DNA of 64,000 bases from the UHGV virus genome UHGV-1372970; one strand, written 5' to 3'. Made by a program: the position numbers and the translations under genes. This DNA comes from a virus. Below the pieces are notes generated by a model that was given only the letters and a program-made list of their open reading frames with translations, did no database searches and had not been told where the DNA came from. Below, piece after piece: positions 9,028 to 61,249 of the stretch. How positions within the stretch are numbered: the stretch's first letter is position 1; every line of letters begins with the position of its first letter.

Positions 9028-9075
9028 CCTTGAGTGCGAAACAAAACCTTATATTAATAAGTAAACACTTACTTA

Positions 9076-9411
9076 TCAAGCCTCAAAAACTTGTCTAAGG
9101 GTACAAGTGATCTCCAAGTACCCTGGATACCGCTTAACAGTATGGGAATCACACACGCAGATAATTTTTTTATTGCGGGGTGTTGTCCAGAAGAACGACT
9201 CTACCGCCCCTCGCGCCATCAAGAAATCGTCAATGGCATTGCCGATCGCGTAAGGCTGTCGGAAGGTCAGAGACCATTCTTCTTTTATGCGGTTTAAACC
9301 CTGTGACTGGCGCTGCTCGTAGTCGTCGCCAAATTTCAGGACAGTAACTTCAGGCTTTATGGTTTTCTCAGACTCGAAGTCAGGGAACCAGGTGAATGTT
9401 TGTCTAGCCAT
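9076..9411 (-). CDS. Minor tail protein, lambda gpM-like.
   Basis: 111 aa, immediately downstream of the tape-measure gene. Called by synteny and size. Confidence 0.6.
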   Translation of the reverse strand: MARQTFTWFPDFESEKTIKPEVTVLKFGDDYEQRQSQGLNRIKEEWSLTFRQPYAIGNAIDDFLMARGAVESFFWTTPRNKKIICVCDSHTVKRYPGYLEITCTLRQVFEA

Positions 9412-9457
9412 TTCTCTTCCTTGAGAAACTGCCTACGTCCTGTAGGCAGTATTTTTG

Positions 9458-12400
9458 TTATCGGTTGCCGTTGGTGTTCTTATTGAGAGAACCACCGGGG
9501 CGCTTTTCTTGGGTGATCGTGTCGAGGACAATATTCTTAATCCTCTGAGCCGCATCATTCCAACCGCTACTGTCGCTGTCTGAGCCAGACGTTGAGCTGG
9601 AACCATCAGAATTAACGCTGATATTGATAGCGACTGGCGCCACTGTTGAACCGCCTGTCATTCCGCCGGTCATAGTTACAGGAATAGAGCGACCGTCTGG
9701 CAGCGGAACATACGCCTCGTTCTGACGACCTTCACCAAACAGAGCGAGTTGAGGTGTGGTGGCAATACCGCCCTTGGAGTAAGTTTTTAATGGAACCACT
9801 CCTTTTGGCCCAAAAATCCCTCCATTTGCGTGAGCCACTGCACCACCGCTGCCTCCGCTACCACCGCTGTCACTGCCACCACTATTGGCCATGCTGCCCG
9901 CCCAAACGGACGTTGCCGCCGAGACCATGGACATACCGAAGTTAAGCCAGCGCCCCTTTGTCGAGTTCGACCCTGCCCCCATCGACGCAAATACAGCGGC
10001 CAGGCCACCAGCTACCGACGACAGATTGTTCATGCTCAGGATATTTGAGCTGATCGCTTTCGTCTGATTGCCGGTCGCAGTGCCGAGACCAAACAGTGAC
10101 TTCGTTGAATCCCAGGCGCTGGAAACCATGCCAGACAATCCGCTGTTTGCGTTTTCCGTCGCCGTGCTCATTTGACTCATGCCGACGCTGGTCTCTTTCG
10201 CTGACTGACCGATCGACTTGTCGCCATTATTCACACTAGACTTGCCACCACCGGCCACAAGACTAACGCCCTGATTCAGCATTGCTCCCGCGACATTTCC
10301 GGTGCTGCCCGTACCGTTAGTCCCCATCCCCATCATGTTCATGATCGGCGCAGTAATCTGGGACTTCACGATGATGCTTGCAATGTCTTTGACAATGGAA
10401 CGAGCAAAATCACTGAAGCTAGCTTTCCCGTCCATAATGAAACTGGTGATAGTGTCCGTCATGCTGGAGAAGGCGTTACTCCAGACACCTTCGATCTGCC
10501 CTGCGACATCTTCATATTCCAGAGCCATCTTCTGTGTTTCAGTGCCAAACTGCTCAACGAATGCCCGGTTCCCGCCTTCCTGCATGGCCTTCAGGCTGCG
10601 CTGATACACGTCTTTCATTACATCAGACTGAGTTGTTGCAATGTAGCTCTGTAACGTATTGATATCGCGCTTATAGTCCTCCTGCCACTTCGCCATCGTC
10701 GCCTGGCGATTTGCGCCATCATACGAAGACATAATCCCGCTAGTGGTCGTGGTGAACTTGGACACCGTTTGCTCTGCAGAATCACGGTCAAGACGCTGAG
10801 AGTAGTCAGACGCATTGGCCTTGATGAAGTCGCGATCGCGGATCATCTGTTGCTTCTGATCAGCCGAGAACCGGGAACCTTCCGGTAACGACTTGCCGTT
10901 GATATCCTGATCTTTCAGCGCGTTGTCGATTTGAGTCAGCGTCTTTTTGACCGATTCATCAAACCCTGCGCTTGCCTTTGACGTAAGACCTAATTGCCCA
11001 GCCAATTCGTTTGCGCTAGAAACGACCTGCTGGTTCGCCTTTGCCACAATTGCATCAATACTTTGCTGCTTAGAGGCGGCGATATTGGCGCTCTGGAGAC
11101 GCTTATTAGCGGCCGCTTGGTCTGCTTTAACAGCATCAGCAAGGCCTTTTTTAATCGACTTCTGCTCTGAATTACTCAGCTCTTCAAATTTCTTGCCACC
11201 AACAGCTGATAGATAACGCTGGTTAACGCTCATCTGGTTCTGGCCGGAAATAACATTCCCGAGTAGGTCGCGCAGCGCGGCGCCGGTGTCCGAGTTGACG
11301 AAGTCGCCGACTTTCTTACCTGCGTTATCAGTGATCAGCTTAATACGGTCGCCGGTTTTCGTCTGCGTGCTCAATTTTGGCGTGTCGCCAGTCATTGAAC
11401 CTTTTGCACGGTCAACGTCCGCCTGTGCCATCTTGATCTGATTGTCGTTTAGATCGTTAATCTGGCGTGACAGAGCAACATTCTTAGTGTCGAGTGTTTT
11501 TTTCTGCTCGGCAGTAAGATTGCTGGCCTTTAGCTGGTCTTCGACAGACTTTTTCTGGTCTTGGAGATTTTGCTCCAGAGTCTGATAACCCGCTAAACGC
11601 TTGTCCATTGCAGCAGCAAGCTTCTTCTGACGCTCGGCGTTCAGGTTCTCAAGTTTTGCAGCCCGCTGATCAGCGCTTAATGACTTATCAGTCTCAATAT
11701 CCTTGTAGCGATCTCGATAATCCTTGGCGGAATTGGAAAAAGACGCCGCGTCCTTGGTGAACTGATTATCAATATCTCTCAACGACGACTGGATATTTCG
11801 GCTTATCTCTTTACTGGCTACGGCAACAACCGCTCCGCCCATCGCATTCTGAATATCCTGACGGTTCCCCTGGATATCTTTCAGCCCAGCATTGATATTG
11901 TCGATGTTGAATTTCTCACCCTTCGACATTTCTTTTTGCTGTTCTGGTGTAGCCGACATGTAAATGCTACGACGACGCTTTAAATCGGCCTCGTCCTGAT
12001 CCAGCTGATTCAGTCGAGCGTTAAGCGCAGCCTGTTCCTGCTTACCCATCGCTTCCGGGACGGCTTTGATTTTCTCCAACGCATCCCCGGCTTTCTCTGC
12101 GACACTCTCAAACGTCGTCGCCAGAAGCGCTACAACCGCAACAACTGCAGTAATCCCGATAATGATTGGGTTGAACTGCAATGTTGCTGTGAAAGCCAGC
12201 CATGCTGTTTTTGCGCCACGAATCGCTTCAGTCACATTAATGACTGCAGCCGCAAACAATCCAATGTTACGGATATCCTGAACAATTCGTCCAGTGACAG
12301 AAAGAAAGCCACCAACCGCTTTGGTTGCAATACCCAAGGATTTATTCAGCGAAGAGAACATCCCCAGAGCTGTGCCGAGAGTTCCGGTAATGACCGTGCT

Positions 12401-14707: not shown

Positions 14708-15453
14708 TTAAGCGGTTACAGTTACGGTGACTTGCGAGGACACAATCGCACCGTCTTTCGTGGTAAACGTAATCTTCGCAGTACCCGTTGCCACACCCTT
14801 CACAACGCCATTGGCGTCTACAGTTGCAATCGCTGGGTTACTTGAAGTCCATGTACCACCTTTTTCATCTGCGGTTGACGGGGCAATCGTCTTAGTCAGC
14901 GTCGTTGTTGCTCCAACTCTGACTGACGCCGAAGCTGGCGACACAGTCACTCCCGTCACTTTTACTTTGGGGCCGAGAGAGTCCCCAACACGCCGGTGTC
15001 ATCCGGGTACGCATTGAACTCAACAGAGAACACGCGAACATCATCTGACTTATAAGCCATGGTGAAGTTACCACCGGTAGCGGCATTCGGTAGAGTCAGA
15101 ATGAAGTCAGTACCATCTTGCGGGGTCAGTACCAATTCCTGAGCAACATCAACGAGGTTGACGCCCTGCGCCGATTTGATGCTCAGCGTTTTGCTGTCGG
15201 TTGACATACTAGAACCAGGCATCAGGTTAACCATGTTCGCAAGCACGCTTTCGGCCAGCGGTACGGTTACTTTGATGTTACGACCCTGAATCAGCTCAGA
15301 GATGGTGGTTTGGCCTAACTGGTCAACGGTCACTTTCAGGGTTTCGGTAGAAACTTCCACCTCTACACCGCCCTTTGTGTAACCCAGATCAGCACCTGCA
15401 AAGGTCACTGCACAGGCACCTAGTTTGATATTTTTTACATGGGTATTAGCCAT
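14708..15453 (-). CDS. Major tail protein with C-terminal Ig-like (Big_2) extension, produced by a -1 programmed frameshift.
   Basis: The slippery heptamer C CCA AAG (plus-strand ctttggg, 14965-14971) sits immediately before the TAA at 14962-14964. The -1 frame continues as PKVKVTGVTVSPASASVRVGATTTL...VTVTA, a Big_2-type Ig fold. Confidence 0.7.
14962..15453 (-). CDS. Major tail protein.
   Basis: 163 aa, beta-rich, abundant-protein-like. Position between the tail terminator and G-like genes. AAGGAG ribosome-binding site. Confidence 0.75.
   Translation of the reverse strand: MANTHVKNIKLGACAVTFAGADLGYTKGGVEVEVSTETLKVTVDQLGQTTISELIQGRNIKVTVPLAESVLANMVNLMPGSSMSTDSKTLSIKSAQGVNLVDVAQELVLTPQDGTDFILTLPNAATGGNFTMAYKSDDVRVFSVEFNAYPDDTGVLGTLSAPK
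14965..14971 (-). promoter_or_regulatory. -1 programmed ribosomal frameshift slippery site (CCCAAAG).
   Basis: X XXY YYZ heptamer in the 0 frame, two codons before the stop. The downstream -1 frame is open for 85 codons. Confidence 0.65.
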
Positions 15454-15493
15454 TCTTGGTAAACTCCTTTTACCGGTTTCGTCATCTTGACAG

Positions 15494-15515
15494 TAAGTAA
15501 GTATATACTTACTTA
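15494..15515. promoter_or_regulatory. Conserved palindrome type 2 (TAAGTAAGTATATACTTACTTA), perfect 22-bp copy upstream of the major tail protein gene.
   Basis: About 13 related copies across the window, listed in findings. Confidence 0.6.
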
Positions 15516-15603
15516 TTTAAGCATTGCAATATCATAAGTGCGCTTGGTATAAACTTAGAAGGGAAATGGGGGCCATCACCCCCGTAGCCAACTGCCTGCT
15601 TTT

Positions 15604-16044
15604 TTAATCTTTTTTATTCATTTTCTTCTGGTACGCCTCGACCCCATCGGAGCAGGCGGTTGCGTAATTGTAATACTCTCGATTAATCATACCGGTCACG
15701 AAGTCATAGCGCGGGTATATATCGGTAAGAAAATCTTTTTCCTGATCGTTGAATTTTTTTGTCTCAAGGATTAGATCAGAAGCAAATTCAGTTTCAAAAT
15801 CATTGCCATGGGCGTCCCTGCCTTTAACCTTGCCGCACACGATATACTCGCCAAACGGGAGCTTGTTCTCTGCATGAAGATCAACGAACTTCATATCTGA
15901 AAATGTCGCCGACTCTGGGTCTGCCAGACGGGTCTTGACCTTCATCTTCGCAAATTCAATCGCTTCGGTTTCCATCTTATTATCGTCACAACCCGTAATA
16001 ACGACCGATAAACCAACAACCAACCCAATCAACGTTTTCTTCAT
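15604..16044 (-). CDS. Lipoprotein (moron inside the tail module).
   Basis: MKKTLIGLVVGLSVVITGCDD signal peptide with a lipobox. AT-richer than the flanking genes. Confidence 0.7.
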   Translation of the reverse strand: MKKTLIGLVVGLSVVITGCDDNKMETEAIEFAKMKVKTRLADPESATFSDMKFVDLHAENKLPFGEYIVCGKVKGRDAHGNDFETEFASDLILETKKFNDQEKDFLTDIYPRYDFVTGMINREYYNYATACSDGVEAYQKKMNKKD

Positions 16045-16136
16045 TTTTTAATCCGACCATTCCATTTTTATCTACTAATATTCAAAAGGTTCGAGCGGCC
16101 ATGCAAACGAAAAAGCCGCACGAAGCGGCCAGGAAA

Positions 16137-16517
16137 CTACAACATATACCCGGCAAATTCCACCGGTAACCCTATTTCGAACATTGCACCATCATTTCTT
16201 GGGTAAACGACTGGCAGGGTCATTGGTCTAACCATCTTAAAAAAGACCCCATTTGACGTAATATCTTCCGCAGGAAGCAGATCACTAATTGCTCGCATCT
16301 TCTTTTGTGCGGTGGAAAGAGAAACGTCGCGCACCACAATCAGCATAGAGTCCATATAAAAATCTCGTAACTCATGATCTACGGAGATACCACTGGTCGG
16401 CGATGTCACCATCACCGCACTTTTGACATCCTGCGGCATGGCGTCGGCAAAGACATTCGACCCGGCCTTCCCAATCCCCATTTTTGCCAGGTGCATTGCT
16501 AATCCCTCAACAAACAT
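16137..16517 (-). CDS. Putative tail terminator / tail completion protein (gpU-like position).
   Basis: 126 aa, immediately upstream of the lipoprotein and major tail protein genes. Synteny only. Confidence 0.4.
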   Translation of the reverse strand: MFVEGLAMHLAKMGIGKAGSNVFADAMPQDVKSAVMVTSPTSGISVDHELRDFYMDSMLIVVRDVSLSTAQKKMRAISDLLPAEDITSNGVFFKMVRPMTLPVVYPRNDGAMFEIGLPVEFAGYML

Positions 16518-17011
16518 TATCGTCTCCTTATGAAACCAGCTTTTCTCGCTGAATCTTCAACTATTTCAGGGAACCGCTTTCGGATGTATTCGACGGCTCT
16601 TTCCATGTACCGACGCCCGACGTTAACCCGCCGATTATCTACCGGCCCCTGTGTCATCTGCTTCAAAATAGAACCGGCACCGAGGCTGTATTTGTGCTTT
16701 TCCATATAGAGCGCATAATCACCAACCGTAGTGCCGGGCTTAACCTTCACAGTCCCATTACTCTGTCTTGGCCGGCTTTCATCAACCTTCATTTCGATGT
16801 GCAAGCTGTCGTAACCGGTCTTTACCACGCGAGCAAAAATGGCGCTTTCAAGCGATCCGGTTTCCATCGGGGCCATTGCTCTTGCCATTCTCTGAGCGAC
16901 ATTAGCCAGCTTCGCCATCTCAGAGACAAGCACGCGTTTATAGGCTTTCTGGCTGTTGCTGAGACGACTCTGGGCCTTCTTCAGATTCAGCGTGTTGATG
17001 TTTAAACCCAT
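16517..17011 (-). CDS. Putative head-tail joining / head completion protein.
   Basis: 164 aa in the connector region between head and tail genes. ATGA-type overlap with its neighbour. Confidence 0.4.
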   Translation of the reverse strand: MGLNINTLNLKKAQSRLSNSQKAYKRVLVSEMAKLANVAQRMARAMAPMETGSLESAIFARVVKTGYDSLHIEMKVDESRPRQSNGTVKVKPGTTVGDYALYMEKHKYSLGAGSILKQMTQGPVDNRRVNVGRRYMERAVEYIRKRFPEIVEDSARKAGFIRRR

Positions 17012-17346
17012 ATATTCGCCCCGACTTCATAATGCCCCGGACGGCCGCGTAACCCCCATCGCTGGTGGATGCTTTCGACTCGCATTTTTTTGCCGCTAAC
17101 GATAAGCACATCCTCCTTGGCGATCGGCGCTGACAGTGGCACGATGAAGACTGCATCAAACAGCGCAATCTCCGCCTTACCACGGCTTGCAGAACTATCC
17201 GCACGAACAGACGTTTTATCGATACTGTCAACGAACGAAACGGCGCCCATCTTTATCTGAGCAGCGAACTCGTATTTCGCCTCTCCGTACAAGTCCATAC
17301 CACCTTTCTTGTACAGAGCGCCCTCAACCTGCCAGGCAATATCCAT
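17002..17346 (-). CDS. Putative head-tail adaptor protein.
   Basis: 114 aa, called by synteny. Confidence 0.35.
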   Translation of the reverse strand: MDIAWQVEGALYKKGGMDLYGEAKYEFAAQIKMGAVSFVDSIDKTSVRADSSASRGKAEIALFDAVFIVPLSAPIAKEDVLIVSGKKMRVESIHQRWGLRGRPGHYEVGANIWV

Positions 17347-17356
17347 TTGACCCGCC

Positions 17357-18190
17357 TTACTGTCTGCGCACGATGACGCGGTTATCCATGTACTTCAGCA
17401 ACATTCTCCACGTCGTTTTGGCGACAATAGAGACAGCACCTTTACCCTGGCGGTAAGCCATGGTCGTTTCGCCAATCGATTCAGAGACGATCCCATCCTC
17501 ACGCGCACGCTGAATATCACTGCCACCGGCAATCTCACTGGCTTCATTCACAACGGCCAGTGCAAGTGCGTTTCGGAAGACTTCTGGAAACTCCATAAAG
17601 TCATCGTCGGTCAGCTTATCCCAATCAACAATGTCGGAGGTGTACTGACCTGCCCAGCGGAAAGGCAGAGTCGACGTCTGAAGCATATTCTGAGGGCGAT
17701 CATAATCATCCCAATCCATGCCATAGATCCGACGAATTGAAAACGACATCGACTTAATGCGCTTCGTTGCCTCAATCAGCTGACGCCGCAGGTCCCCTTC
17801 GCCACCGGTTAGTAAACTTCCGCCGTTAAGCATGTCGATCGCCTGTAGCTGCGCTTCGCCAATGGAGATAAACGACTGCTTCGGGACAGACAGCTCAAAA
17901 CTGCGTAAAACGATGTACTGCTGCTCTTTGGTAATGAAAGCGCCACCTGCATCAACTGATAGCGTAACGCGTCGCAAATCGCGTTCACGCTCACCCAGAG
18001 CGTTAATCGCCCCAGGGACAGTGATAGTGACAAACATCTGCCCATCAGAGACAGGGACATCGACGCCGGACGTGACGATATTTCCGCTGGCGTCTTTCAC
18101 AGAGTAACTGGCTGAGGTAGCGCTCATCACATCGAGAGAAAAGCGCAGCGTGACATCATCCCCGTCTTTATAAACGCCAAGCTGCCCCAT
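17357..18190 (-). CDS. Hypothetical structural protein.
   Basis: 277 aa, beta-rich N-terminal half, in the head-tail connector region. Confidence 0.4.
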   Translation of the reverse strand: MGQLGVYKDGDDVTLRFSLDVMSATSASYSVKDASGNIVTSGVDVPVSDGQMFVTITVPGAINALGERERDLRRVTLSVDAGGAFITKEQQYIVLRSFELSVPKQSFISIGEAQLQAIDMLNGGSLLTGGEGDLRRQLIEATKRIKSMSFSIRRIYGMDWDDYDRPQNMLQTSTLPFRWAGQYTSDIVDWDKLTDDDFMEFPEVFRNALALAVVNEASEIAGGSDIQRAREDGIVSESIGETTMAYRQGKGAVSIVAKTTWRMLLKYMDNRVIVRRQ

Positions 18191-18615
18191 TACACGCCGC
18201 CTTGCGCTTTCAGAATGCCGTCAATCATCTCTACGATGCCTTTGGCCTTCACGCCTACTACCCCACCAATCAAACGCAGACCCGCGATCCCTTCAATATC
18301 AGCGACAGCCTCAAGCTCTTCACGCGTGTAGATCTGAACACCCGGCTCGACAGTACCGCGAGCGAGATTGGTCACTGGCTCTGCGACATGTTCCTTAACG
18401 GCCTCAGCATTAACGGAGTATCGCTCGCTATAAGCGCCAGCTGCCGAAACATTGCGGCCATCAACGGTTTCCGCACGCATCGACGCGCAGATACGCTGCT
18501 GATCCACAAACGGTAGCTCTTCGACAGAAACACCATCTTCGAACTGAACGCCACAAAGCAGACCGGTGTATCCCTTAAAGGTCGATTCCAGCAACTTCAC
18601 TTTTGCACTTTTCAT
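18190..18615 (-). CDS. Hypothetical structural protein.
   Basis: 141 aa. ATGA overlap with the downstream gene. Confidence 0.4.
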   Translation of the reverse strand: MKSAKVKLLESTFKGYTGLLCGVQFEDGVSVEELPFVDQQRICASMRAETVDGRNVSAAGAYSERYSVNAEAVKEHVAEPVTNLARGTVEPGVQIYTREELEAVADIEGIAGLRLIGGVVGVKAKGIVEMIDGILKAQGGV

Positions 18616-18656
18616 TTTCTATCCCTGAATGTGGGCGCCATATGACGCCCTTTTGG

Positions 18657-19100
18657 TTAAACTTGGACTGTCTCTGGATTGTTTACGGTGATAGCCGCTT
18701 CGTCGAATACAGAGCCATCATTAGCAACCAGACGAATCTTCACACTGCCTTCGGCTACACCTTTCACCAGACCAGACGCATCGACGGTCGCAATGCCGGA
18801 ATCGTCAGTCACCCAATGGTAAGAGCGGTCAGTGGCGTTATCAGGCTTGATAGTGCCTCCCAACTGAACCGTCTCACCCACCAGCACCGTCGCCGTCTTC
18901 GGGGAAACCGTTACGCTCTGGACGTGAATGATAGCGGCCGCATCTTTGTGCGGTTCAGACTTGAAACATGCGGCCAGGCGATTCTGGCGGTACTCAGTCA
19001 TCGGCGCGTCAGAAACTGATTTGGTAAACGGCGTGTTAAACATCGTTCCGGTGAAATCAGTGAACTGCTCGTCCGTGATTTTCATTTTTTGCTCAGGCAT
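18657..19100 (-). CDS. Ig-like (Big_2) domain head decoration / accessory protein.
   Basis: Segment IHVQSVTVSPKTATVLVGETVQLGGTIKPDNATDRSYHWVTDDSGIATVDASGLVKGVAEGSVKIRLVANDGS is a Big_2-type Ig domain. Gene lies just downstream of the major capsid protein. Confidence 0.65.
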   Translation of the reverse strand: MPEQKMKITDEQFTDFTGTMFNTPFTKSVSDAPMTEYRQNRLAACFKSEPHKDAAAIIHVQSVTVSPKTATVLVGETVQLGGTIKPDNATDRSYHWVTDDSGIATVDASGLVKGVAEGSVKIRLVANDGSVFDEAAITVNNPETVQV

Positions 19101-19111
19101 ATCTTTCCCTC

Positions 19112-19140
19112 AAAAAAAAAGGGCGGGCGCAAGCCCACCC
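19112..19140 (-). terminator. Rho-independent terminator between the major capsid and decoration genes.
   Basis: Minus-strand RNA GGGUGGGC-UUGC-GCCCGCCC followed by U9. Confidence 0.7.
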
Positions 19141-19173
19141 GTTAATTAAGTAAGTATTTACTTACTAATCTAA

Positions 19174-20046
19174 TTAAATCTTAACGCCGCCCAGAGCTGC
19201 AATGGCTTTGTCATGCTTGTTAACCAGACCGGTGTACCACTTAACGCGGGTACGGGTTGCGTCTTTATCCTGAACGGTGCCGATGGACTCGACAACGATA
19301 CCGGCATTGTCACCGCCGTAGATACCGGACAGGCCGTTCTCTTCGGACATGTGCAGACAGTAAATCGGAGCCGCGCCGTCAGTAACCGGGATAAAGTCGT
19401 TCACGATGAACGGAATGCCGTTGTGGGTCAGCATCGGTCGACCGAAGTTCTCCACCATGATTTCGCTCGGGCCAGCGTTTACGGTACGCAGCAGCGCACG
19501 ATAAGCACGCAGGTGCTCGGAGCGAACCATCAGGCAGTCAGCGCCCAGATCTTTAACCGCATCCACCAGCTCATCGAGCATGGAGAAGGTCATAGAGGCG
19601 TTAGCCGCGATGTTCTGGTCCGCAGCCATCAGCTTCGCGATACCGTTGAAGGACTTCGGATTCAGAGTTTCGTCACCCTGGATCAGATTGCGGCGGAACG
19701 CACGCGCCAGACCTTTCACTTTCGCGCGGATCTGAATCGCCAGCTGGCTGTTGGTGTCATCCATGGTGGTAGCCAGGAATTTATCAACATCCACATCACC
19801 GGCCATAATACGCAGCTTCGCGGTATGTTCGGAGAAGGTTGCAGCGCCTTCAGGGATCACATCGTTCACGTCGATGAAACCGGCTTCAGACAGGGTCGCT
19901 TCGCGGTTGTACAGATAGGCTTTGCTGTTCACTTTGAAGAACGGCAGGATTGCAAACAGGTCATCACGGTCGATAATCGTTTCGATTACGCCCTGCTCCA
20001 GTTCGTTATTACTCAGCTTTTCAGCTTCTTCACGCAGTAAAGGCAT
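19174..20046 (-). CDS. Major capsid protein (HK97 fold).
   Basis: 290 aa with typical HK97-fold major capsid protein composition. Follows the scaffold gene. Confidence 0.85.
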   Translation of the reverse strand: MPLLREEAEKLSNNELEQGVIETIIDRDDLFAILPFFKVNSKAYLYNREATLSEAGFIDVNDVIPEGAATFSEHTAKLRIMAGDVDVDKFLATTMDDTNSQLAIQIRAKVKGLARAFRRNLIQGDETLNPKSFNGIAKLMAADQNIAANASMTFSMLDELVDAVKDLGADCLMVRSEHLRAYRALLRTVNAGPSEIMVENFGRPMLTHNGIPFIVNDFIPVTDGAAPIYCLHMSEENGLSGIYGGDNAGIVVESIGTVQDKDATRTRVKWYTGLVNKHDKAIAALGGVKI

Positions 20047-20075
20047 CTTTCATTTCCTTATGATTAAGATGTTTG

Positions 20076-20948
20076 TTACTTGTTCAATTTACCAATGCCA
20101 GCGGTCAACTTATCCAGTGTCGACATCTTGGTTTCGGTATTCAGTTTCGGTTTGGTGGTGGTCTTAGAGTGAGCACCTTGCTTAGCTTCACTGCGCAGCA
20201 AAGCGTCAGCTTCAGGGTCAGCACGCAGAATGCGCTCAATAGCACTTTCAAACGCCAGTGGACTACCTTGTCCATCAACCATAACCGTGCGATCTTTTGC
20301 GCCAGCTGGTTTGTCAAAACCAACGACGCGGCCGTCTTCGCCAATCTCAAAGTGAGCGCCGTAAATGACACGAGCCTTTGCTGGGGTCATCAGGACTTTC
20401 TCACGCAGGAAGTTGGACTCGCTAAAAGAGGTTCCGATGGTTTTCTCAACCAGCTCACCTTTCATGCCAGCGATAACCGCTTCGAGTTCAGCGATGCGAG
20501 TGTCACGACCTTCCAGATCTTTGCCGTGCGCTTCGACCATCTGCTTTTTAACAGCGTCAAATTCGCCGCGGCGTTCTAGCTCCAGACGCTCCGCGTCTTC
20601 ACGAGCTTTTTGAGCAGCGGACTCAGCTTGGACTAACTCGATGGCGCGTTCCGGTGCAATATCACCGTACTGAGCCAGCTTTTCCTTCAGAGATTGCTCG
20701 TTGCCTTTTCGCTTCATGCTTTCTTTCAGCAAAGTCGCGGAGGTTTTACGCTCTTCACGGACTTTAGCAATCAGCTCTTCAGCACTCAGACCATCCAGAT
20801 CGTCAATTTGGGCAGCGCCCTTCTCAACGTCTGAAACTTCTGCGCCGGATTCACCACCGCCACCGCCACCGCCACCGCCTAACTCTTCTTTGCCCGCAAC
20901 GTCCATGTACCCGGTATGGGCCAACTGCATCCACTGCCATAACTTCAT
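20076..20948 (-). CDS. Head scaffolding protein.
   Basis: 290 aa, highly charged coiled coil with a poly-Gly tract. Between the portal and major capsid genes. Confidence 0.75.
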   Translation of the reverse strand: MKLWQWMQLAHTGYMDVAGKEELGGGGGGGGGESGAEVSDVEKGAAQIDDLDGLSAEELIAKVREERKTSATLLKESMKRKGNEQSLKEKLAQYGDIAPERAIELVQAESAAQKAREDAERLELERRGEFDAVKKQMVEAHGKDLEGRDTRIAELEAVIAGMKGELVEKTIGTSFSESNFLREKVLMTPAKARVIYGAHFEIGEDGRVVGFDKPAGAKDRTVMVDGQGSPLAFESAIERILRADPEADALLRSEAKQGAHSKTTTKPKLNTETKMSTLDKLTAGIGKLNK

Positions 20949-20960
20949 TCAAAAATCCTT

Positions 20961-22535
20961 TTATTCGTCATTACCCGGTTTCTTGGGTGATGTTTTCCCT
21001 GTTCCTTGGGACTTCTCTTGCCCAGTTTCTCGGGCTGTACCTTTATCATAAGTAAGTGCTAACTTACTTTCAACCCCCATAGGTTCATTTTTTGGAGGAA
21101 ATTGCAATAAATCTTTCTCAATCTCCTTCATTTTCTCTTTCGGGAGGTTCGGGAAGATTTTATCAATCAGGATCTCCATCTGATAACGACGCACAGAATC
21201 CGGTGCCTGGAGCAATTGCAGGTTCTGGGCAACACTGAACTCGTCAGTCAGACCACGAATGTCGAAGCTCTCAGGGTACGCCACCAGCTCGTCATCTTCT
21301 GGCAGTTTGTCACCCATCCATGCAGTCACCAGCTTCATCAGCATTTCCTCGGCTCGCTGCAGGCGGCTTGATTTGTTGATAAGCAGACTATTCACTCGCT
21401 GGAAGTCATACAGCTTGGCCGCGCCGCTGGAGTTGTCGATACCCTTAGCGTTGTCCTGCTTCGTCCGCTCACCAGCCACGCCGACAGAGTGATAGATCTC
21501 ATTGATGATCTGCTGAACGGTCGAAATAATCATGCTCGCCTGTTTCGGGTCCGGCGACAGGTAGAATGGTTGCGCTCCGTTTTCGCCGTCGTAGGTGAAG
21601 ACGCGCTTCGTACCAAACTCCAGCACTTTTTTGTGGTTCTCGTCGCCAGGCAACAGCGACTGAACAGGGATGGCCAGCTGGGAAAATGTCTGATCCTGGA
21701 TGATGGCATCGAGGTTAGACAGATAGTTCGCCACGGCACGGTCGAGGTAAGCGATGTCATCAATAAGCGACGGGCTGAAATACTGCGACTCACTCTGCCC
21801 CATACAATCGACCGGGAATACCGGAACCATGCCGAGGCCATGCGAACCGTAATCTTCCAGAATCACCTTCGCTCGATTGCCGGCGCGTGAGCCCTTTTTC
21901 TCTTCACGGAACAGATACCAGTCGGTCTTTGTCCATAAACGGTAACGAAGGAACTCTTTGCCGGAGGATTTGAAAGGGTCAGAGTCATCACGACCGATTT
22001 CGCAGATCAGAATCCAGCTCAGATTACCCTCTTCATCCCACGCGCAATCCAGCATCTGCTGTGGCGATACCCAATAGGCGTAAGCGCGGCCGTCAGATTT
22101 CTTCTGATCCTCTTTCGACTCAATTTCACCCGATACAGTGCTATCCACGACAACCCAGATACGACCGTAAATTGATGACTGCAGGTCGACTTCGGCCATG
22201 AAGTCATCGATATTCATGTTCTGGCGTGTTGCACGTTTCCAAAAGTCTTTTACAGATTGCGGCGCGTCGTCCTCGCAGCGGTGAATATCCTCTTTAAACA
22301 GGTATTTGTTGATGAGGTTCACTACTTCGCGAGTGTGGTTAAACCGGTAAGCACGCTCCAGTCGCTCTTTAAATTCAGCATCCCCCTCTTTGAAGTAGCG
22401 GAAGATGTTGTCTTTAAACCATGTACGGCCACCAGCGTAAGTGGCCGCGATGAAGTCCCAATGCGCTTTGCGCGTTTCGTAATCAGGATGGCGACGGTTC
22501 ACCAGATCCTGAATCATTTTAGTAGACAATTCCAT
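20961..22535 (-). CDS. Portal protein.
   Basis: 524 aa, directly downstream of TerL. Confidence 0.85.
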   Translation of the reverse strand: MELSTKMIQDLVNRRHPDYETRKAHWDFIAATYAGGRTWFKDNIFRYFKEGDAEFKERLERAYRFNHTREVVNLINKYLFKEDIHRCEDDAPQSVKDFWKRATRQNMNIDDFMAEVDLQSSIYGRIWVVVDSTVSGEIESKEDQKKSDGRAYAYWVSPQQMLDCAWDEEGNLSWILICEIGRDDSDPFKSSGKEFLRYRLWTKTDWYLFREEKKGSRAGNRAKVILEDYGSHGLGMVPVFPVDCMGQSESQYFSPSLIDDIAYLDRAVANYLSNLDAIIQDQTFSQLAIPVQSLLPGDENHKKVLEFGTKRVFTYDGENGAQPFYLSPDPKQASMIISTVQQIINEIYHSVGVAGERTKQDNAKGIDNSSGAAKLYDFQRVNSLLINKSSRLQRAEEMLMKLVTAWMGDKLPEDDELVAYPESFDIRGLTDEFSVAQNLQLLQAPDSVRRYQMEILIDKIFPNLPKEKMKEIEKDLLQFPPKNEPMGVESKLALTYDKGTARETGQEKSQGTGKTSPKKPGNDE

Positions 22536-22566
22536 TTGTCATATCCTTACGTTAGTAAATACTTAC

Positions 22567-23823
22567 TTATCTCGATCCACCAAGAATAACACGAGTCTTG
22601 ACCGGGAATCGACGATGAATTGGATAACCCAGGGCATCGGCGCTGTGCTCGACGTTTCCAGTTTTATCAATGTCACGGCCACCTGGCTTATAAACCACCT
22701 TCTCCAGTGAATCGATCAGATGCTTACATTTCGGGTCGATGTACATGCGCACGTCGCCTGAAGCGGTCAGTAGCAGTCGGTTTACTGCGTTCACACGGTC
22801 AGCGATCGGCGGGTGCTTCTTCGGATGGTCAATTCGCATAAACCCCTTCTCCTTGAAGATGTCCACATCCGATTCACCTCGCGCGTGCTGTCGGTATGCA
22901 CCAGCGGGGTCAGGGAAAACTGTCACCTGGCTTTTCTGGCGCCAATACCGTCTCTCCAACTCATCACACACTTCTGACGTGTTGGAAGAGAACAGGACAA
23001 CCTCATCAATCGCCCAAACTTCGCCGTTAGGCTGCGGCTGCAGGATCACCGATGACATTGGGTCGATGTTGAAGTCCTGCCCCACCCAGATAGGTAAGCG
23101 TGGATTGAATTGCAGAGGCTTTACATGCACACCACGTTCAAACGGGTAATACACACGACCGGACATATTTTCGAACGAAGCAAGATACTCCTGCGCGAAC
23201 GATTTAGGGTCCATGTCGTTTTTGGCCGCTTCGATCTCGCTATCTGGGACGAATGGAGAATCTGCCGTCACAAACTGCCAGCTCTTCCACAACCCTTTTG
23301 CTTGCATCTCTGGGTTCTGGCCGATCATGAATAGCTTATGGAACTCTGAGAAGCCCTTTGGCGTACCGATGATCAGCGCACCACCGCGGGTAGACGACAG
23401 CGTCGGTCGAAGCACCTTGTACCAGGTGTCCGGCTTCATATCCTGAAACTCATCCAGTACGACAAAGTTCAGAGCAACACCACGAAGCGTATCCGGCTTA
23501 TCCGCCCCTTTTAGCGCGATCTCACTGCCGTTCTTCAGGATGATTGTCATCGTGGTATCGTTTTTCTTCGCGATCCACTTACGAGGCAATACTTCCTGAA
23601 GGTCATCCCACAGAATTTGTCGTGCCATCTGATACGTTGGTGCGATGTACCAGACACGCTGTTTGCGGTCAGCTGCGGCCGCTTTGATGATTTTAGAAAT
23701 CGACAGTCGTGACTTGCCCCAGCGTCGACCGGCGCACACCACCTTGAAGCGGTGCGGTGACTTGAAGACCCTCATCTGCCCCGAATGCAACTGAACCAAG
23801 CTCAGGGAGGATGGCATAGCCAT
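22567..23823 (-). CDS. Terminase large subunit.
   Basis: 418 aa. Walker A motif GRRWGKS and Walker B motif VVLDE. C-terminal nuclease domain. Confidence 0.9.
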   Translation of the reverse strand: MAMPSSLSLVQLHSGQMRVFKSPHRFKVVCAGRRWGKSRLSISKIIKAAAADRKQRVWYIAPTYQMARQILWDDLQEVLPRKWIAKKNDTTMTIILKNGSEIALKGADKPDTLRGVALNFVVLDEFQDMKPDTWYKVLRPTLSSTRGGALIIGTPKGFSEFHKLFMIGQNPEMQAKGLWKSWQFVTADSPFVPDSEIEAAKNDMDPKSFAQEYLASFENMSGRVYYPFERGVHVKPLQFNPRLPIWVGQDFNIDPMSSVILQPQPNGEVWAIDEVVLFSSNTSEVCDELERRYWRQKSQVTVFPDPAGAYRQHARGESDVDIFKEKGFMRIDHPKKHPPIADRVNAVNRLLLTASGDVRMYIDPKCKHLIDSLEKVVYKPGGRDIDKTGNVEHSADALGYPIHRRFPVKTRVILGGSR

Positions 23824-28298: not shown

Positions 28299-28363
28299 TT
28301 AGTAAGTAGTTACTTATATAGAATACCCAATTAGCATAAATAAGGCACGAAGGAAATTAAAAA

Positions 28364-34252: not shown

Positions 34253-34378
34253 AATTACCTCCATGTAGTTGAGCGGCACTAATCATATACTGGTAAGTAA
34301 ACACTTACAATACAGGCACAAAAAAGCCCCAAAAGGATGAAGGGGCTGTAGAAATTTTTGTGACTACTAAGCACATGA

Positions 34379-43742: not shown

Positions 43743-43743
43743 T

Positions 43744-46044: not shown

Positions 46045-46232
46045 TCGTTCTCTTCAACAAAAAGGAGCCGAAGCTCCTTATATTGTTTTGGCGCCTTTAA
46101 TCAGCAAAGGCAGTAATAAAGTGATGCCAGTAATAACCAGCACCCCATCCGCAGCCACTGATAAAATCCGGCTGGTGAAGTCCACCAGCACAGACAGAAC
46201 CAGCAGCGCCAGCGCGACGCTGACGCGGACCA

Positions 46233-46658: not shown

Positions 46659-46715
46659 GTGATTTCCTTTGTTTTCTTATTTTAGAAAATAATTTGTTTT
46701 CTACTTCAGGCTGTG

Positions 46716-47162: not shown

Positions 47163-47311
47163 AAAGCCTCTTTGCATGTTTTAGAAACGGTTGCGGCTGG
47201 GGAGAACCCAGCCGCCTATTTGCGCCTCGTCCATGAGGCCAGCGCTAACCGCGCTATCTTCCGTGCAAAAGAAACATACAATAACGCAAAAAATAAGTAA
47301 ACACTTATTTA

Positions 47312-47875
47312 TTATTCGCGGTAATAAATAGCCTCATACATGCGATCGACCATCGTTGGGGATTCGGCCATGGATTTAGCCATCATGTCGCACAGCTCGT
47401 TATTCACGTCATGTCTGGTGCTTTTGACGCGGCTCCAACGAATGCGGTGTCCAGATGCGGCAGCATCCAGTTCCTGCCAGAGATCGGCATCCTTCACACG
47501 CTCACCGTTCGCCATCTTCCAGCCGCGCTTTTTCCAGCCTTTAACCCACAACTTCATGCCGTTGATTAGCTGCTGGTTGCTGGTGTAGATCGTCACATTG
47601 CATTTCTGATTAAGAAGATCCAACCCTCTGATAACGGCAAGTATTTCCATGCGGTCGCTGGTTGAGGATCTGAAACCTTCCTGAACAGTTTTGTTGTGGT
47701 TGCCAAAACGAACAATGGCCGCAGCACCACCGGCACCGTTTCTCATACAGAAGCCATTTGTATACAAAAGAACCTCTTTCAGCCGCGGGTCAAATTTTGC
47801 GGCCCCGTTTTCATCGGAAACACGACTATTACGGTTGTATTTGATGCCTTCCTGTTTTGCTGGTGCCTTCGCCAT
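47312..47875 (-). CDS. rnhA: Ribonuclease HI.
   Basis: Aligns with E. coli RnhA (TNGFC.., SDRMEILA, YTSNQQLINGMKLWVKGWKKRGWKMANGERVKDADLWQEL) with the catalytic residues conserved. Confidence 0.85.
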   Translation of the reverse strand: MAKAPAKQEGIKYNRNSRVSDENGAAKFDPRLKEVLLYTNGFCMRNGAGGAAAIVRFGNHNKTVQEGFRSSTSDRMEILAVIRGLDLLNQKCNVTIYTSNQQLINGMKLWVKGWKKRGWKMANGERVKDADLWQELDAAASGHRIRWSRVKSTRHDVNNELCDMMAKSMAESPTMVDRMYEAIYYRE

Positions 47876-48436
47876 TTTGCCTTTCCGTTTTCGCTTCGCT
47901 GTTTCGCTGAATGTTTTTGTTTTCTCGGTAGGGGCTGCTGACCATACTTATCCTAACAATTCCGTTAAAAAAACTTCGGCCCATTTTGTTTAACGGTTCG
48001 GCCGAATCAGTGTTTTCTTAATCGAAAAAGTTAGGCGTAGTTTCAGCAGTCCCTCCCACTGGTAAGCACTCTCATTCTTCTGGAAAGGGCTTACTCGTAC
48101 AGGTTCCTCTTAGAATTTAACGGTTGAGCTTTTATTCTGCGCGGTAGGTATCTAAGTCGCTCCCCCCACCTCACAGCCCTGTAGCTTTTACCCTCAACCA
48201 ACGTGGGCTACCAACCCACGTTCACACCGGCAATACAGACCCTATGCTACAAATCCCGTCTGGGTCTTCCCATGAGCCTCGGCTCAAGGTTCTTTACTGC
48301 TCCACCAATCCCGACCGTTTCTCACCGAGAGACTGGTGTCGTTGCCATTTTGTAATAGCTTGGCTGCTAAAAAATTTGGCCACATAAAAGTGGCCGCGCA
48401 ATCATACATACGACAAACATATAAGTAAATTATTAC

Positions 48437-48664
48437 TTACCATTTTGACTCAGCACGCCCTTTCAACTGAACATCCAGCGCAAAGTTCGTGTTAATCAGA
48501 TCCCCGACCAGCATACCGATTTCGTCGGAGTGTTTGCCTTCGCGAAGACTGTCGACAACCCACTGGTAAAGCGTGAATGCCTGGTCTCGGTTCTCCATCA
48601 ACTTTCGGGTGTTGGCCAGGAAGTCATTTTCAACCAAGGCGACGATATTTGTTTCGTAAGTCAT
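48437..48664 (-). CDS. Hypothetical protein.
   Basis: 75 aa. AAGGAC ribosome-binding site. Confidence 0.5.
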   Translation of the reverse strand: MTYETNIVALVENDFLANTRKLMENRDQAFTLYQWVVDSLREGKHSDEIGMLVGDLINTNFALDVQLKGRAESKW

Positions 48665-48847
48665 TTTTTAGTCCTTATTGTTTTCTTAACGCTATGGTAA
48701 AGCCATGCAGCAGGCTGCAAAGCTGGGGTGTTAGGTTGTTTTTTTCACAAGAACCCCAGAGGAAAAAGGAGATTAAGGCACGTAAGTGCCTGAATCTCTT
48801 AAACAGCCTTGCTCTGGATAGTATTTAAAGCTCTTTTTAAAATCTTT

Positions 48848-49396
48848 TTAATTAAGGGGAGTCTTGGTTTTCTTAACAGGCTTCTTAGCGGCTTTTTTCC
48901 GAGGCTTTCGCTTCGCTGTCAGTGGGTCATATCCACCCAGCGCTTTCATCACACCGATGTCAATCTCTGACGTTTGATGCCCGGCTGCGCCACAGAACCC
49001 GCGGAAAACGAGCAACATGCTGCCGCCAGTGTTCTCTCTGACTTCAACCAGACCCAGATTAGTGTCTGGCTCCATGAACGCCACGCGCCCGCCCACAATC
49101 AGCACTGTCTGATTAGCATTGCGCTTCACGTCCAGATACCACTGAGTGTCGAGGGACTGAGGAACGAGCATGACAGTCGTTGCCCCATTGGCTTGTTCAC
49201 GCGCTGCGGCGTCAATCCATGGTTTGATTTTGGGGTAGGGCGAATTGAGAAATGCGATCGTGCCGGCCGAACCCCAAATGGACTTTAGCGCATCACGTTC
49301 AACGCCTATAAAATCAGGCAGGATCGCATTGTCTTTGTTACATGCGACGTCGACCTGGAACTTCATACCGAGATACACCTCAATGGCATGAAACAT
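48848..49396 (-). CDS. dam: DNA N6-adenine methyltransferase (phage Dam family).
   Basis: LNSPYPK (N/D-PPY variant), small phage-type Dam size. Basic C-terminal tail. Confidence 0.7.
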   Translation of the reverse strand: MFHAIEVYLGMKFQVDVACNKDNAILPDFIGVERDALKSIWGSAGTIAFLNSPYPKIKPWIDAAAREQANGATTVMLVPQSLDTQWYLDVKRNANQTVLIVGGRVAFMEPDTNLGLVEVRENTGGSMLLVFRGFCGAAGHQTSEIDIGVMKALGGYDPLTAKRKPRKKAAKKPVKKTKTPLN

Positions 49397-49670
49397 GCCA
49401 TTGAGGTGTTCTCCAGAGGTCGCGAAGATTTCCGTCGCGCTCTCTTTTTTTGATTTTCTGAGAACCGTTCACAAACATTATAATAGGTAAATATTTACTT
49501 ATTTTACAGGATTGATTGTAACTAACAAGAGCATGTGTCGGGATCTGCTCTGTAACGCTCGGGATCGCGTTTTTCAGTGATGGGTAATGCGATGGTGCTG
49601 GTCAAGATAAAAAAGCCCACATGGGGCTTTTAAGAATGTCTGGCAAATGAGTGGAACGGACTAGGAGTGA

Positions 49671-50753
49671 TCAACCCAATGAGTGCTTTATGAAGAGATA
49701 AATACCCAAGATCACTACCGCATAAGCTATAAATTGCTTTACCTTATATTTTTCAGTATCACTTGCCTTTCTGGAAACTGAAATCCGCCCAGGTTGGACG
49801 TCAACATCATAGCTAATATGACCTCTATAACTACTTGACACATAAAAGCTCTCAAATTTTCTTTTGAAATTAAAAGAAAATTTTATGCAATTTTCCCCTA
49901 GGTTTTTTACTGGCAGATCAGTCACTAATGCCTGCTCTTTCTGCTCACCTGGATTTAATATTATACCGGGGATTGTTTTATACACCTTTTGCACCCCATT
50001 CATCGGGTCTTTTTCATGAGCTGCCTTTATTTCAGCCGCATTCGCAGCACGGATTGTTAAATCAAAATGTGCATCTTCCTTGCCGGGATTTTTTAACTTA
50101 ACTAGATATTCAGATTTATATGAATATTTTGTGCGCAACACCGATCTGCCCTTATTTATTCGACCTGTGTTTTCAATATCGCTAAGTTTTGATTCTCTAT
50201 ACTCCACTTCAGCGGAAACTTCAGATATTGCAATAAAATAACCCAAAACTAATTTTATGAAGTAGGCCGTATGCTTTTTTTGCAACTCCTTGGCTTTTGC
50301 CACTCGCTTTTCAATCGATATCATTGATAATTGTTCGGCCACATCCTGAAATTGCAATGCTTCGTGCTCACAAGAAAAATAAGTTCTGCAACCTTTTTCG
50401 TCAGGGTCATGACTCCAAACACCCTTTTCTTTCAAAGATTCTAGATAAGAAATATAATCATTAATGTCATCCTTGAAAACATATTCTGCTCTTGCTTTGT
50501 AGGCGTGAGTGTAGGCTTCATTTAAACCTAACGAGCCAGCGAGTTCATAATATTCAATAGCCTTCTCAATATTTTTTTTGGTTCCATTGCTTGTTAAATA
50601 GCAATACGCCATATTGAAATATGCTTCAGGGTTATTATCCTTCTGGGCTATACCAGACCACTCGGCAAAAGCCTGATACCAGTCATCTTGTAATTTTCCC
50701 CCAAGAAAAAAAACTTTATCTTCTTTTATTGCTAAGTCTATTTGCTCTTTCAT
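49671..50753 (-). CDS. Sel1-like repeat protein with a C-terminal transmembrane anchor (moron).
   Basis: Sel1/TPR-like repeats (AYFNMAYCYL...AIEYYELAGSLGLNEAYTHAY...). C-terminal AYAVVILGIYLFIKH. Very AT-rich. Confidence 0.6.
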   Translation of the reverse strand: MKEQIDLAIKEDKVFFLGGKLQDDWYQAFAEWSGIAQKDNNPEAYFNMAYCYLTSNGTKKNIEKAIEYYELAGSLGLNEAYTHAYKARAEYVFKDDINDYISYLESLKEKGVWSHDPDEKGCRTYFSCEHEALQFQDVAEQLSMISIEKRVAKAKELQKKHTAYFIKLVLGYFIAISEVSAEVEYRESKLSDIENTGRINKGRSVLRTKYSYKSEYLVKLKNPGKEDAHFDLTIRAANAAEIKAAHEKDPMNGVQKVYKTIPGIILNPGEQKEQALVTDLPVKNLGENCIKFSFNFKRKFESFYVSSSYRGHISYDVDVQPGRISVSRKASDTEKYKVKQFIAYAVVILGIYLFIKHSLG

Positions 50754-54964: not shown

Positions 54965-54965
54965 A

Positions 54966-56057: not shown

Positions 56058-56127
56058 GCTGTCCTTTATTGATAAGTATTTGTTTACTTATTTTACACAA
56101 CAAAAGGAGGCGTTAAAGAAAAAAAAA

Positions 56128-56149: not shown

Positions 56150-56254
56150 CAAAAAGGAATGCTATATATGAATTGAAAATAATCAATGTAATACAAGGCG
56201 GAAAGGAATATACATTAATAAGCATTTACTTACCAATAAAAACCCATCATTTTT

Positions 56255-61181: not shown

Positions 61182-61201
61182 GTTGTTGTCCGAAATAAAA
61201 A

Positions 61202-61223
61202 AGGCCACTAAATGTAGTGGCCT
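61202..61223 (-). terminator. Terminator-like or 5'-leader hairpin immediately upstream of nrdA.
   Basis: AGGCCACUA-loop-UAGUGGCCU followed by U-rich sequence on the minus strand. Confidence 0.45.
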
Positions 61224-61228
61224 ATAGT

Positions 61229-61249
61229 AATAAGTAAATACTTACTTAT
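61229..61249. promoter_or_regulatory. Palindrome type 2 copy lying as the 17-bp spacer of a TTGATA-N17-TACTAT sigma70-like promoter upstream of nrdA.
   Basis: Minus strand cgtaTTGATAagtaagtatttacttatTACTATagg. Confidence 0.5.

Follow-up and report, generated by a model that had tools for sequence, protein, structure and literature searches.

The DNA analysed here, a stretch of 64,000 nucleotides of the virus genome UHGV-1372970 (the window), raises the question of what a short palindrome is doing that lies again and again between its genes, and which protein, if any, reads it. The original prediction had listed about 13 copies at gene boundaries and had named an operator for a global phage regulator, an RNA processing or stability hairpin and a core-promoter spacer as candidate roles. 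On balance, we consider it probable that the palindromes are the dispersed operators of the element's own small lysogeny repressor, a helix-turn-helix (HTH) protein of the Cro/CI type. Among the roles named, that of an operator is favoured by the symmetry of the site, its conservation at equivalent junctions, the existence of lineage-specific variants and their co-variation with one HTH repressor.

All 13 listed sites exist, and they have a common 18-bp layout of a 7-bp half-site, 4 bp and the inverted half-site, the palindrome of the enterobacterial elements being TAAGTAAGTACTTACTTA in full. The window was scored with the consensus TAAGTAA-N4-TTACTTA, using 200 dinucleotide-preserving shuffles as null. 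Four sites were exact (9058, 19147, 48422 and 61231), seven separate sites had one mismatch (15494, with a second, overlapping register at 15498, as well as 21049, 22552, 28299, 47294, 49484 and 56073), one site had two mismatches (56215) and one weak site had three (34294), compared to shuffle means of 0, 0.01, 0.105 and 1.2 sites at 0, 1, 2 and 3 mismatches, respectively. With up to two mismatches, the window thus holds 12 sites where about 0.1 would be expected by chance. The pattern TAAGTAAR-N(0-8)-YTTACTTA matched four times in the window and never in 100 shuffles, and the lone half-site TAAGTAA occurs 22 times versus 4.35 expected; a rescan of the window for further sites gave no additional convincing ones. 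The recurrence of the palindrome is real and strongly non-random. Although the window is about 88% coding, 12 of the 13 sites are extragenic or touch only a stop codon, in agreement with the placement that had been described, and the sole intragenic site, at 21049, lies at the 3' end of the portal gene. The sites and the two hairpins next to them are as follows.

9058..9075: exact palindrome TAAGTAAACACTTACTTA, in the gap from the stop of the M-like tail open reading frame (ORF; 9076) to the start codon of minor tail protein L (ATG 9027); read on the minus strand, that of the genes, it lies within TTGATA-N17-TAATAT.
15494..15515: perfect 22-bp palindrome TAAGTAAGTATATACTTACTTA with two overlapping 18-bp registers (15494 and 15498, one mismatch each), 40 nt upstream of the ATG of the major tail protein (15453).
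19147..19164: exact palindrome TAAGTAAGTATTTACTTA, between the capsid stop (19174) and a strong terminator hairpin, which lies 6 nt downstream.
19112..19140 (approximate), minus strand: GC-rich hairpin GGGTGGGCTTGCGCCCGCCC with a T-run, resembling an intrinsic terminator, directly downstream of the 19147 palindrome.
21049..21066: palindrome TAAGTAAGTGCTAACTTA, one mismatch, at the 3' end of the portal gene, the scaffold ATG (20948) following 100 nt on; kept in Salmonella phage SSU5 and Escherichia phage Cyrano.
22552..22569: palindrome TTAGTAAATACTTACTTA, one mismatch, overlapping the TerL stop (22567-22569), the portal ATG (22535) following 16 nt on.
28299..28316: palindrome TTAGTAAGTAGTTACTTA, one mismatch, in the divergent region between a ParB-like gene (ATG 28298, minus strand), whose start it adjoins, and a helicase gene (ATG 28364, plus strand).
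34294..34311: weak site TAAGTAAACACTTACAAT, three mismatches with a perfect left half, upstream of the ORF 33812-34279 (minus strand).
47294..47311: palindrome TAAGTAAACACTTATTTA, one mismatch, immediately past the stop of the RNase H gene (47312).
48422..48439: exact palindrome TAAGTAAATTATTACTTA, overlapping the stop of the ORF 48437-48664 (minus strand), with a predicted -35 within its downstream half.
49484..49501: palindrome TAGGTAAATATTTACTTA, fitting TARGTAA-N4-TTACYTA, with the Dam methyltransferase start 11 nt downstream; a predicted promoter TTGTTA-N16-TAAAAT ends on its first base.
56073..56090: palindrome TAAGTATTTGTTTACTTA, one mismatch; the thymidylate synthase ATG (56057) follows 15 nt on, and a terminator at 56150-56127 lies upstream.
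56215..56232: degenerate palindrome TTAATAAGCATTTACTTA, two mismatches, in the spacer of a predicted TTGGTA-N18-TATATT (56236-56207, minus strand) and upstream of the terminator at 56150-56127.
61231..61248: exact palindrome TAAGTAAATACTTACTTA, inside TTGATA-N17-TACTAT (61252-61224, minus strand) upstream of nrdA.
61202..61223, minus strand: hairpin AGGCCACTACATTTAGTGGCCT with a T-run, between the nrdA palindrome with its -10 and the nrdA start.

Some details of the individual sites had to be corrected. The site at 19147 had been said to overlap the capsid stop, but the stop codon occupies 19174-19176 and the palindrome lies 5-9 nt downstream of it; likewise, the distance between the site at 22552 and the portal ATG is 16 nt and not 18 nt. 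The nrdA palindrome had been described as forming exactly the 17-bp spacer of its promoter. It does lie there, but the 18-mer spans the last 2 bp of TTGATA and 16 of the 17 spacer positions. At 34294, the left half of the listed site is perfect but the right half, TTACAAT, is weak, and this site may be a chance match.

The window carries most of its genes on the minus strand. In protein-level searches, its capsid and terminase were 80-89% identical to those of SSU5, Cyrano and Klebsiella phage-plasmids, and over the 12-kb structural region searched it is about 99% identical to the Klebsiella oxytoca plasmid pCAV1099-111 (NZ_CP011594.1, 111,395 bp; pCAV in the following). Judged by these identities, the window is an SSU5-type phage-plasmid of Klebsiella. 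A megablast of window positions 15000-23000 (8 kb) against phage records gave no match, and the portal gene alone matched 967 plasmid records. The related elements carry the motif in similar numbers: with TARGTAA-N4-TTACYTA and up to two mismatches, we counted 26 sites on the whole circle of pCAV, where they lie before or between replication, nucleotide-metabolism, packaging, head, tail and lysis genes, 23 in SSU5 and 22 in Cyrano. At ten junctions compared side by side (terL/portal, portal 3' end, after capsid, before major tail, M/L, nrdA, thymidylate synthase, dam, after RNase H and parB/helicase), the palindrome was kept while the flanks had diverged. The same was seen between the window and pCAV on a smaller scale, the half-sites being unchanged and the N4 centre altered, e.g. 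GTAT versus GGGT at nrdA.

The conservation at equivalent junctions, which the original prediction had proposed as a check, extends beyond SSU5 and Cyrano to more distant relatives, where other palindromes of the same 7-4-7 architecture occupy the same junctions. At the terL/portal junction, for instance, the Acinetobacter lineage and the metagenomic lineage L141 have palindromes of their own, and the palindrome after the capsid gene stands between stop and terminator in four lineages. The variants found in these relatives are listed below by element or, for the sequences labelled L, by lineage.

Acinetobacter baumannii plasmid (portal 56% identical): TCAGTCA-N4-TGACTGA, in full TCAGTCAGTACTGACTGA, in about 25-35 copies, according to how many mismatches are allowed.
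L141 (metagenomic): TATCTCA-N4-TGAGATA.
L134/L314: half-site TAWGTAW.
L285-290: half-site TARGTAG.
L313 and L145: half-site TMAGTCA.
L135: everted, TTACTTA-N4-TAAGTAA.

The virulent Pseudomonas phage nickie has kept the gene order, is without integrase or repressor and showed no recurrent palindrome in the 100 of 112 kb examined. When viral contigs were scanned for the exact pattern, most hits were single ones attributable to chance. The everted copies of L135, at 5346, 13599 and 17415, have an order of half-sites that is not explained by the usual dimer geometry, and those at 13599 and 17415 stand directly before GC hairpins.

Does the palindrome act as DNA or as RNA? An AU-rich intercistronic hairpin for RNA processing, stability or translational control would fit the location of the sites, which are in transcribed intergenic regions and often beside stop or start codons, and the 18-mers can be folded, albeit with weak predicted energies of -1.6 to -8.5 kcal/mol. 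The pattern of substitutions speaks against such a hairpin. Between 35 and 49 arm positions per genome are off the consensus, of which 24-44 break the pairing and 0-7 are compensated (24 versus 0 in pCAV, 25 versus 7 in SSU5, 24 versus 6 in Cyrano and 44 versus 1 in the Acinetobacter plasmid), and pairing is thus lost much more often than it is retained. One double change alone is recurrent, from A/T to G/C at positions 3/16; it showed no significant association (Fisher p = 0.07 and 0.40), and an Rfam search of the window returned no family match. In addition, a position profile built on 70 enterobacterial and 35 Acinetobacter sites revealed arms that are conserved in sequence, beyond mere complementarity: hardly any variation is seen at the outer half-site positions. 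At the centre, the four bases vary more freely but tend to G-T-A-C and thus also lean to twofold symmetry, which makes each half read TARGTAAGT. The A/T-rich flanks weakly mirror each other, the upstream flank being the more conserved one. Such a twofold-symmetric site, whose half-sites are spaced by about one helical turn around a variable centre, is what characterizes operators of the Cro/CI type. Because the departures mostly break arm pairing and the outer half-sites are conserved in sequence, the features of the element are those of a double-stranded DNA site read by a symmetric dimer and not those of an RNA hairpin, and we regard the RNA role that had been suggested as very improbable.

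With regard to expression signals, no single geometry of palindrome versus promoter elements was found. The palindromes at nrdA (61231), at the M/L junction (9058) and at 56215 lie in the spacer of TTGATA/TTGGTA-N17/18-TAnnAT, and the sites at 61231, 56215, 49484, 48422 and 9058 overlap consensus-like hexamers. At parB, portal, thymidylate synthase and dam, the site is 0-16 nt from the start codon, and site-to-start-codon gaps range from 0 to 100 nt overall. The proposed role of a core-promoter spacer therefore describes nrdA, M/L and 56215 correctly but does not extend to the other sites, which lie over the -10/+1, over the -35 or against the start codon; spacer geometry is not the defining property of the motif. 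That the sites are placed so variably around start regions is more compatible with steric repression than with an activator of fixed geometry.

Such an activator has a precedent in the Lpa protein of phage P1, for which 11 late promoters with a 9-bp inverted repeat were described (PMC10695390), and the palindrome might likewise be the activator site of a phage-specific promoter class in which it replaces the -35 upstream of a -10. The likeness is that both are multicopy short inverted repeats with AAGT/ACTT upstream of a -10 in a phage-plasmid: the repeats in the P1 record, AAGTTACTT and ATGTGACTT, lie 4-9 nt upstream of the -10, and the centre of our motif with N4 = GTAC is AAGTACTT. Furthermore, the palindromes at nrdA, M/L and 56215 are centred near -22 of TTGATA/TTGGTA ... 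TAnnAT, and A is more frequent in the upstream flank than at the mirrored positions downstream. Unlike the P1 repeats, however, the palindromes have no fixed distance to a -10-like hexamer, TAnnnT hexamers being symmetric on both sides of the site with no preferred downstream offset; several sites are 0-16 nt from a start codon, which leaves no room for a leader; and early genes as well as the repressor gene also have sites in front of them. A tblastn search of four genomes gave no Lpa homologue (best E 0.86, in a sequence-level search only; Lpa has its own Pfam family, PF25716), and the virulent phage nickie must express late genes, yet is without the element in the 100 kb examined. We therefore set aside an Lpa-type late promoter, for want of both an Lpa homologue and a fixed -10 geometry, and judge this explanation to be unlikely.

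Which protein could then be the repressor that reads the palindromes as operators? In pCAV, the candidate is a protein of 101 aa (WP_047719694.1; 71394-71699), encoded beside the integrase and outside the region corresponding to the window, and homologues are CYRAN_45 of Cyrano and, in Acinetobacter, the protein encoded at 3454-3918 (WP_001107553.1). It was singled out in a screen for pCAV ORFs with homologues in both Cyrano and the Acinetobacter plasmid and none in nickie, in which it was the sole DNA-binding protein, the others being tail proteins and ParA. The candidate matched PHROG 8 'transcriptional regulator' (E 1e-11 to 3e-6) and, weakly, the immunity repressor in PDB entry 8bny (E = 0.09). 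In pCAV, Cyrano and Acinetobacter alike, the repressor gene is immediately preceded by degenerate copies of the palindrome, and in nickie both the repressor and, over the 100 kb examined, the palindrome are absent. CYRAN_45 is listed as a putative repressor and was 10-fold over local background in an LF82 lysogen, and genotoxic stress induces Cyrano (PMC9928086). Across lineages, the recognition helix of the candidate changes together with the half-site, as the following pairs show.

Helix G[FY]xN[AP]NN[LI]SLIKSG: half-site TARGTAA (all 80 enterobacterial loci found).
Helix ENANNLSNIKT: half-site TARGTAG.
Helix PNVNT: half-site TAWGTAW.
Helix SAHNN: half-site TRGGTAT.
Helix KRPNV: half-site TCAGTCA.
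Helix NKPNI: half-site TMAGTCA.

SSU5 itself lacks the integrase-repressor module and has nevertheless kept its sites. Enterobacter plasmids that are 99% identical to SSU5 (e.g. NZ_CP134668.1) have extra DNA exactly at this point (around 42640 of SSU5, our L124), and for this reason SSU5 seems to derive from a temperate phage-plasmid by a recent deletion and, hence, is not a counter-example to a repressor as the reader of the palindromes.

In the mechanism that we propose, a repressor dimer would bind with each monomer reading one 7-9-bp half-site TA(A/G)GTAA(G)(T), the half-site centres being 11 bp apart, i.e. about one helical turn. The genome would be split into many lytic transcription units, most of them with a site in or beside the start region, be it between -35 and -10, over the -10/+1, over the -35 or against the start codon. 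In the plasmid state, a single repressor could in this way silence replication, nucleotide-metabolism, packaging, head, tail and lysis genes, and its loss would release the lytic units jointly. Binding of the motif by the candidate, repression and an active promoter beside each site are what we infer here from the patterns described.

Several observations weigh against this proposal. Consensus sigma-70 promoters were no commoner in the sequence than in shuffled sequence (18 found versus 21), and the overlaps of the palindromes with promoters are therefore only putative. The match of the pCAV protein to the Pfam family HTH_3 (E = 0.0015, 19 bits) is below the cutoff of 23. Moreover, the helix itself was among the two patterns used to find the 80 homologues, so that this set is biased to that helix, and both helix and half-site follow phylogeny; their co-variation over about six lineages is therefore suggestive but not proof. 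Some positions, such as the gap between the capsid stop and the terminator or the inside of the portal gene, are odd for an operator. Immunity repressors usually diversify fast. Here, one half-site is common to the elements of Klebsiella, E. coli and Salmonella although their repressors are only 40-48% identical, and a half-site shared by such divergent repressors would fit a conserved host factor equally well.

One such host factor could be the nucleoid-occlusion protein SlmA, to which the enterobacterial palindromes might bind. SlmA would then be recruited or titrated by a multicopy replicon with about 25 sites, either coupling plasmid position or lytic replication to inhibition of the FtsZ ring or acting as a transcription factor, which is conceivable as SlmA can affect transcription (PMC5519180). 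The published SlmA consensus AAGTAAGTGAGCGCTCACTTACGT contains TAAGTGA-GCGC-TCACTTA (PMC4423959); extended to TAAGTGA-N4-TCACTTA, it matches our motif at 12 of 14 positions with the same 7-4-7 spacing, and the two differing positions accept any purine with similar Kd (PMC3020112). The natural E. coli site SBS17, TCAACGTTAGTGACCATTTACTTACTTTTG, contains TTAGTGA-CCAT-TTACTTA (PMC4423959), the right half of which is exactly the phage half-site. The sites of the window have 1-3 mismatches to the 12-bp SlmA rule GTRAGYRCTYAC, none being perfect, and by our own count SBS17 itself has 2. As would be expected for the binding site of a conserved host protein, the motif is invariant across the phage-plasmids of Klebsiella, E. 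coli and Salmonella, and a search with an approximate query sequence found no SlmA homologue in the element itself. At the level of sequence, the resemblance is too close to dismiss.

Other features of the sites are unlike those bound by SlmA. The 12-bp core, GTRAGY|RCTYAC, is defined in either half by G1, T2, A4 and G5 (core numbering), whereas the best-conserved positions of our motif (T1, A2, T17 and A18) lie outside this core; of the core bases reported as critical, the G (motif position 8) is retained by only 63% and the C (position 11) by only 53% of the sites. The chromosomal SlmA sites are mostly intragenic with none in a promoter region (PMC3020112), and 2 of 24 are intergenic (PMC5519180) compared to 12 of 13 here. 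Finally, sister lineages carry half-sites off the SlmA rules (GTCA, TATCTCA and TATGTAT) at the same junctions, including L134 with its enterobacterial-like GC content, while the recognition helix of SlmA is reported to be conserved among gamma-proteobacteria (PMC3020112). Since different half-sites occupy the same junctions in sister lineages, the sites appear to follow the phage lineage and not a host protein, and SlmA as the intended reader is rather doubtful in our view.

The two functions could, on the other hand, coincide. There is a small chance that the enterobacterial operator is simultaneously a working SlmA-binding site that recruits or drains this DNA-activated FtsZ antagonist. If so, about 25 SlmA sites on a multicopy replicon of 110 kb would exceed, per cell, the 24-52 sites reported for the chromosome. 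The plasmid might thereby be shielded from the closing septum, or division might be blocked as lytic replication multiplies the sites, which would amount to a division inhibitor written in DNA instead of encoded as a protein and would link plasmid-prophage biology to the control of host cell division. In the literature on SlmA with phage or plasmid and on SlmA in Acinetobacter, we found no description of such a case.

The reader could also be another DNA-binding protein of the phage, either one of two ParB-like proteins or a winged-helix protein of 88 aa, acting as a KorB-like regulator or as a genome organiser. The ORFs 27585-28298 and 26927-27607 have ParB N-terminal domains, the ORF 24583-24849 (minus strand) gave a LexA-type winged-helix match (E 1.5e-4), and in every lineage a palindrome stands against the start of the ParB-like gene. 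ParB-family proteins, however, normally have few clustered sites or another site architecture. All three are also conserved in nickie, where no palindromes occur in the 100 kb examined, and such a reader thus appears distinctly unlikely. As a separate observation, the match of the 88-aa protein is just below the Pfam threshold and the protein belongs to PHROG 900, of unknown function; its gene lies directly upstream of the terminase genes, occupies the position of lpa in P1 and is conserved even in the virulent nickie.

If the palindromes are operators of the HTH repressor, the closest parallel in organisation would be the C1 network of P1. In both cases, an enterobacterial plasmid prophage has its lytic genes in many transcription units, and a short sequence is repeated genome-wide at the starts of these units, annotated as C1 protein-binding sites in the P1 record, so that one repressor would silence the whole set. 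A specific sequence repeated at the boundaries of lytic units far above chance, as in a network of this kind, is what we found in the window. The differences are substantial as well. P1 C1 operators are asymmetric, and C1, with 283 aa, is apparently unrelated to the HTH protein of 101-154 aa proposed here. The late genes of P1 are under the separate control of Lpa, whereas in our element the same motif also occurs in the packaging, head and tail operons. In length, the operators compare as 17 bp (P1 record) versus a symmetric 18-bp palindrome. By analogy, then, the likeness to the P1 C1 network is one of logic and not of homology.

With respect to the protein, the Cro/CI (HTH_3) repressors of phages 434 and P22 provide the better comparison. 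The candidate is a small HTH protein that may belong to this broad class, as indicated by PHROG 8 and the weak matches to HTH_3 and 8bny, and the operators are alike in being palindromes of 14-18 bp. Conserved outer half-sites combined with a variable centre, as seen here, are typical of 434 and P22 operators. Unlike lambdoid repressors with their two clustered operator regions, the element has about 25 single sites spread over 110 kb, and the candidate differs from the class in having no S24 peptidase domain and an HTH match below the Pfam threshold.

Phage-plasmids of the SSU5 type occur widely, in Klebsiella, E. coli, Salmonella, Enterobacter, Yersinia and Acinetobacter, and phage-plasmids are reported to carry antibiotic-resistance genes (PMC9600943). 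Literature searches on SSU5 promoters or palindromes and on the motif strings yielded no description of the motif, nor of how SSU5-type elements silence their roughly one hundred lytic genes as plasmids. If our assignment is correct, they would offer a testable circuit in which about 25 defined operators of 18 bp are under a single small repressor, at least five naturally occurring helix/half-site pairs as a specificity series, and a simple sequence marker of transcription-unit boundaries in the SSU5-type family.

Terminator/antiterminator coupling was considered and rejected as a general rule, as no more than 3-5 sites per genome have a strong hairpin with a T-run behind the palindrome. These cases, after capsid, before nrdA and at M/L, are kept across lineages with differing hairpin sequences. 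At nrdA (61202-61252, minus strand) and capsid (19112-19164, minus strand), the order is stop, palindrome, GC hairpin with T-run and next gene; this order is conserved in four lineages with different hairpin sequences, the nrdA arrangement being kept in SSU5, Cyrano and Acinetobacter. At nrdA, the terminator-like hairpin is downstream of the putative promoter/operator, and transcription starting about 7 nt past TACTAT would begin inside the 5' arm of the hairpin. In the window at 49470-49501 (minus strand), the dam palindrome is followed by TTATAAT and then by GTG where pCAV has its ATG start. A transcript from this TTATAAT as -10 would be nearly leaderless, and pCAV has CTTAAGT at the same place. 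At the other end of the window, positions 1-6928 (minus strand) belong to a very long tail gene, within which the window starts and which is annotated as 'phage tail protein' in pCAV (38315-50740, about 4,100 codons).

A second palindrome family is present in the window. The 13-bp palindrome AAACAAnTTGTTT, which is probably the 'early-promoter palindrome' mentioned in the original prediction, occurs 15 times with up to one mismatch versus 0.27 expected, at the following positions.

24454, 33358, 34768, 35298, 37034, 37566, 38815, 39108, 41649, 41700, 42705, 45201, 46687, 52382 and 54096: copies of AAACAAnTTGTTT.

These copies lie over the -35 of promoters with a GATAAT -10, or about 10 nt downstream of such promoters and just before the ribosome-binding site. 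The palindrome is also carried by pCAV, SSU5 and Cyrano, but not by the Acinetobacter relative. The same distribution is seen for a gene at 30405-30938 (plus strand) that encodes a protein of 177 aa matching Pfam PF03614, 'repressor of phase-1 flagellin' (FljA family; E = 5.7e-29), and PHROG 1444, 'transcriptional repressor'. Because of this shared distribution across genomes, the FljA-family protein may be the reader of the 13-bp palindrome; FljA of Salmonella acts on an mRNA 5' untranslated region.

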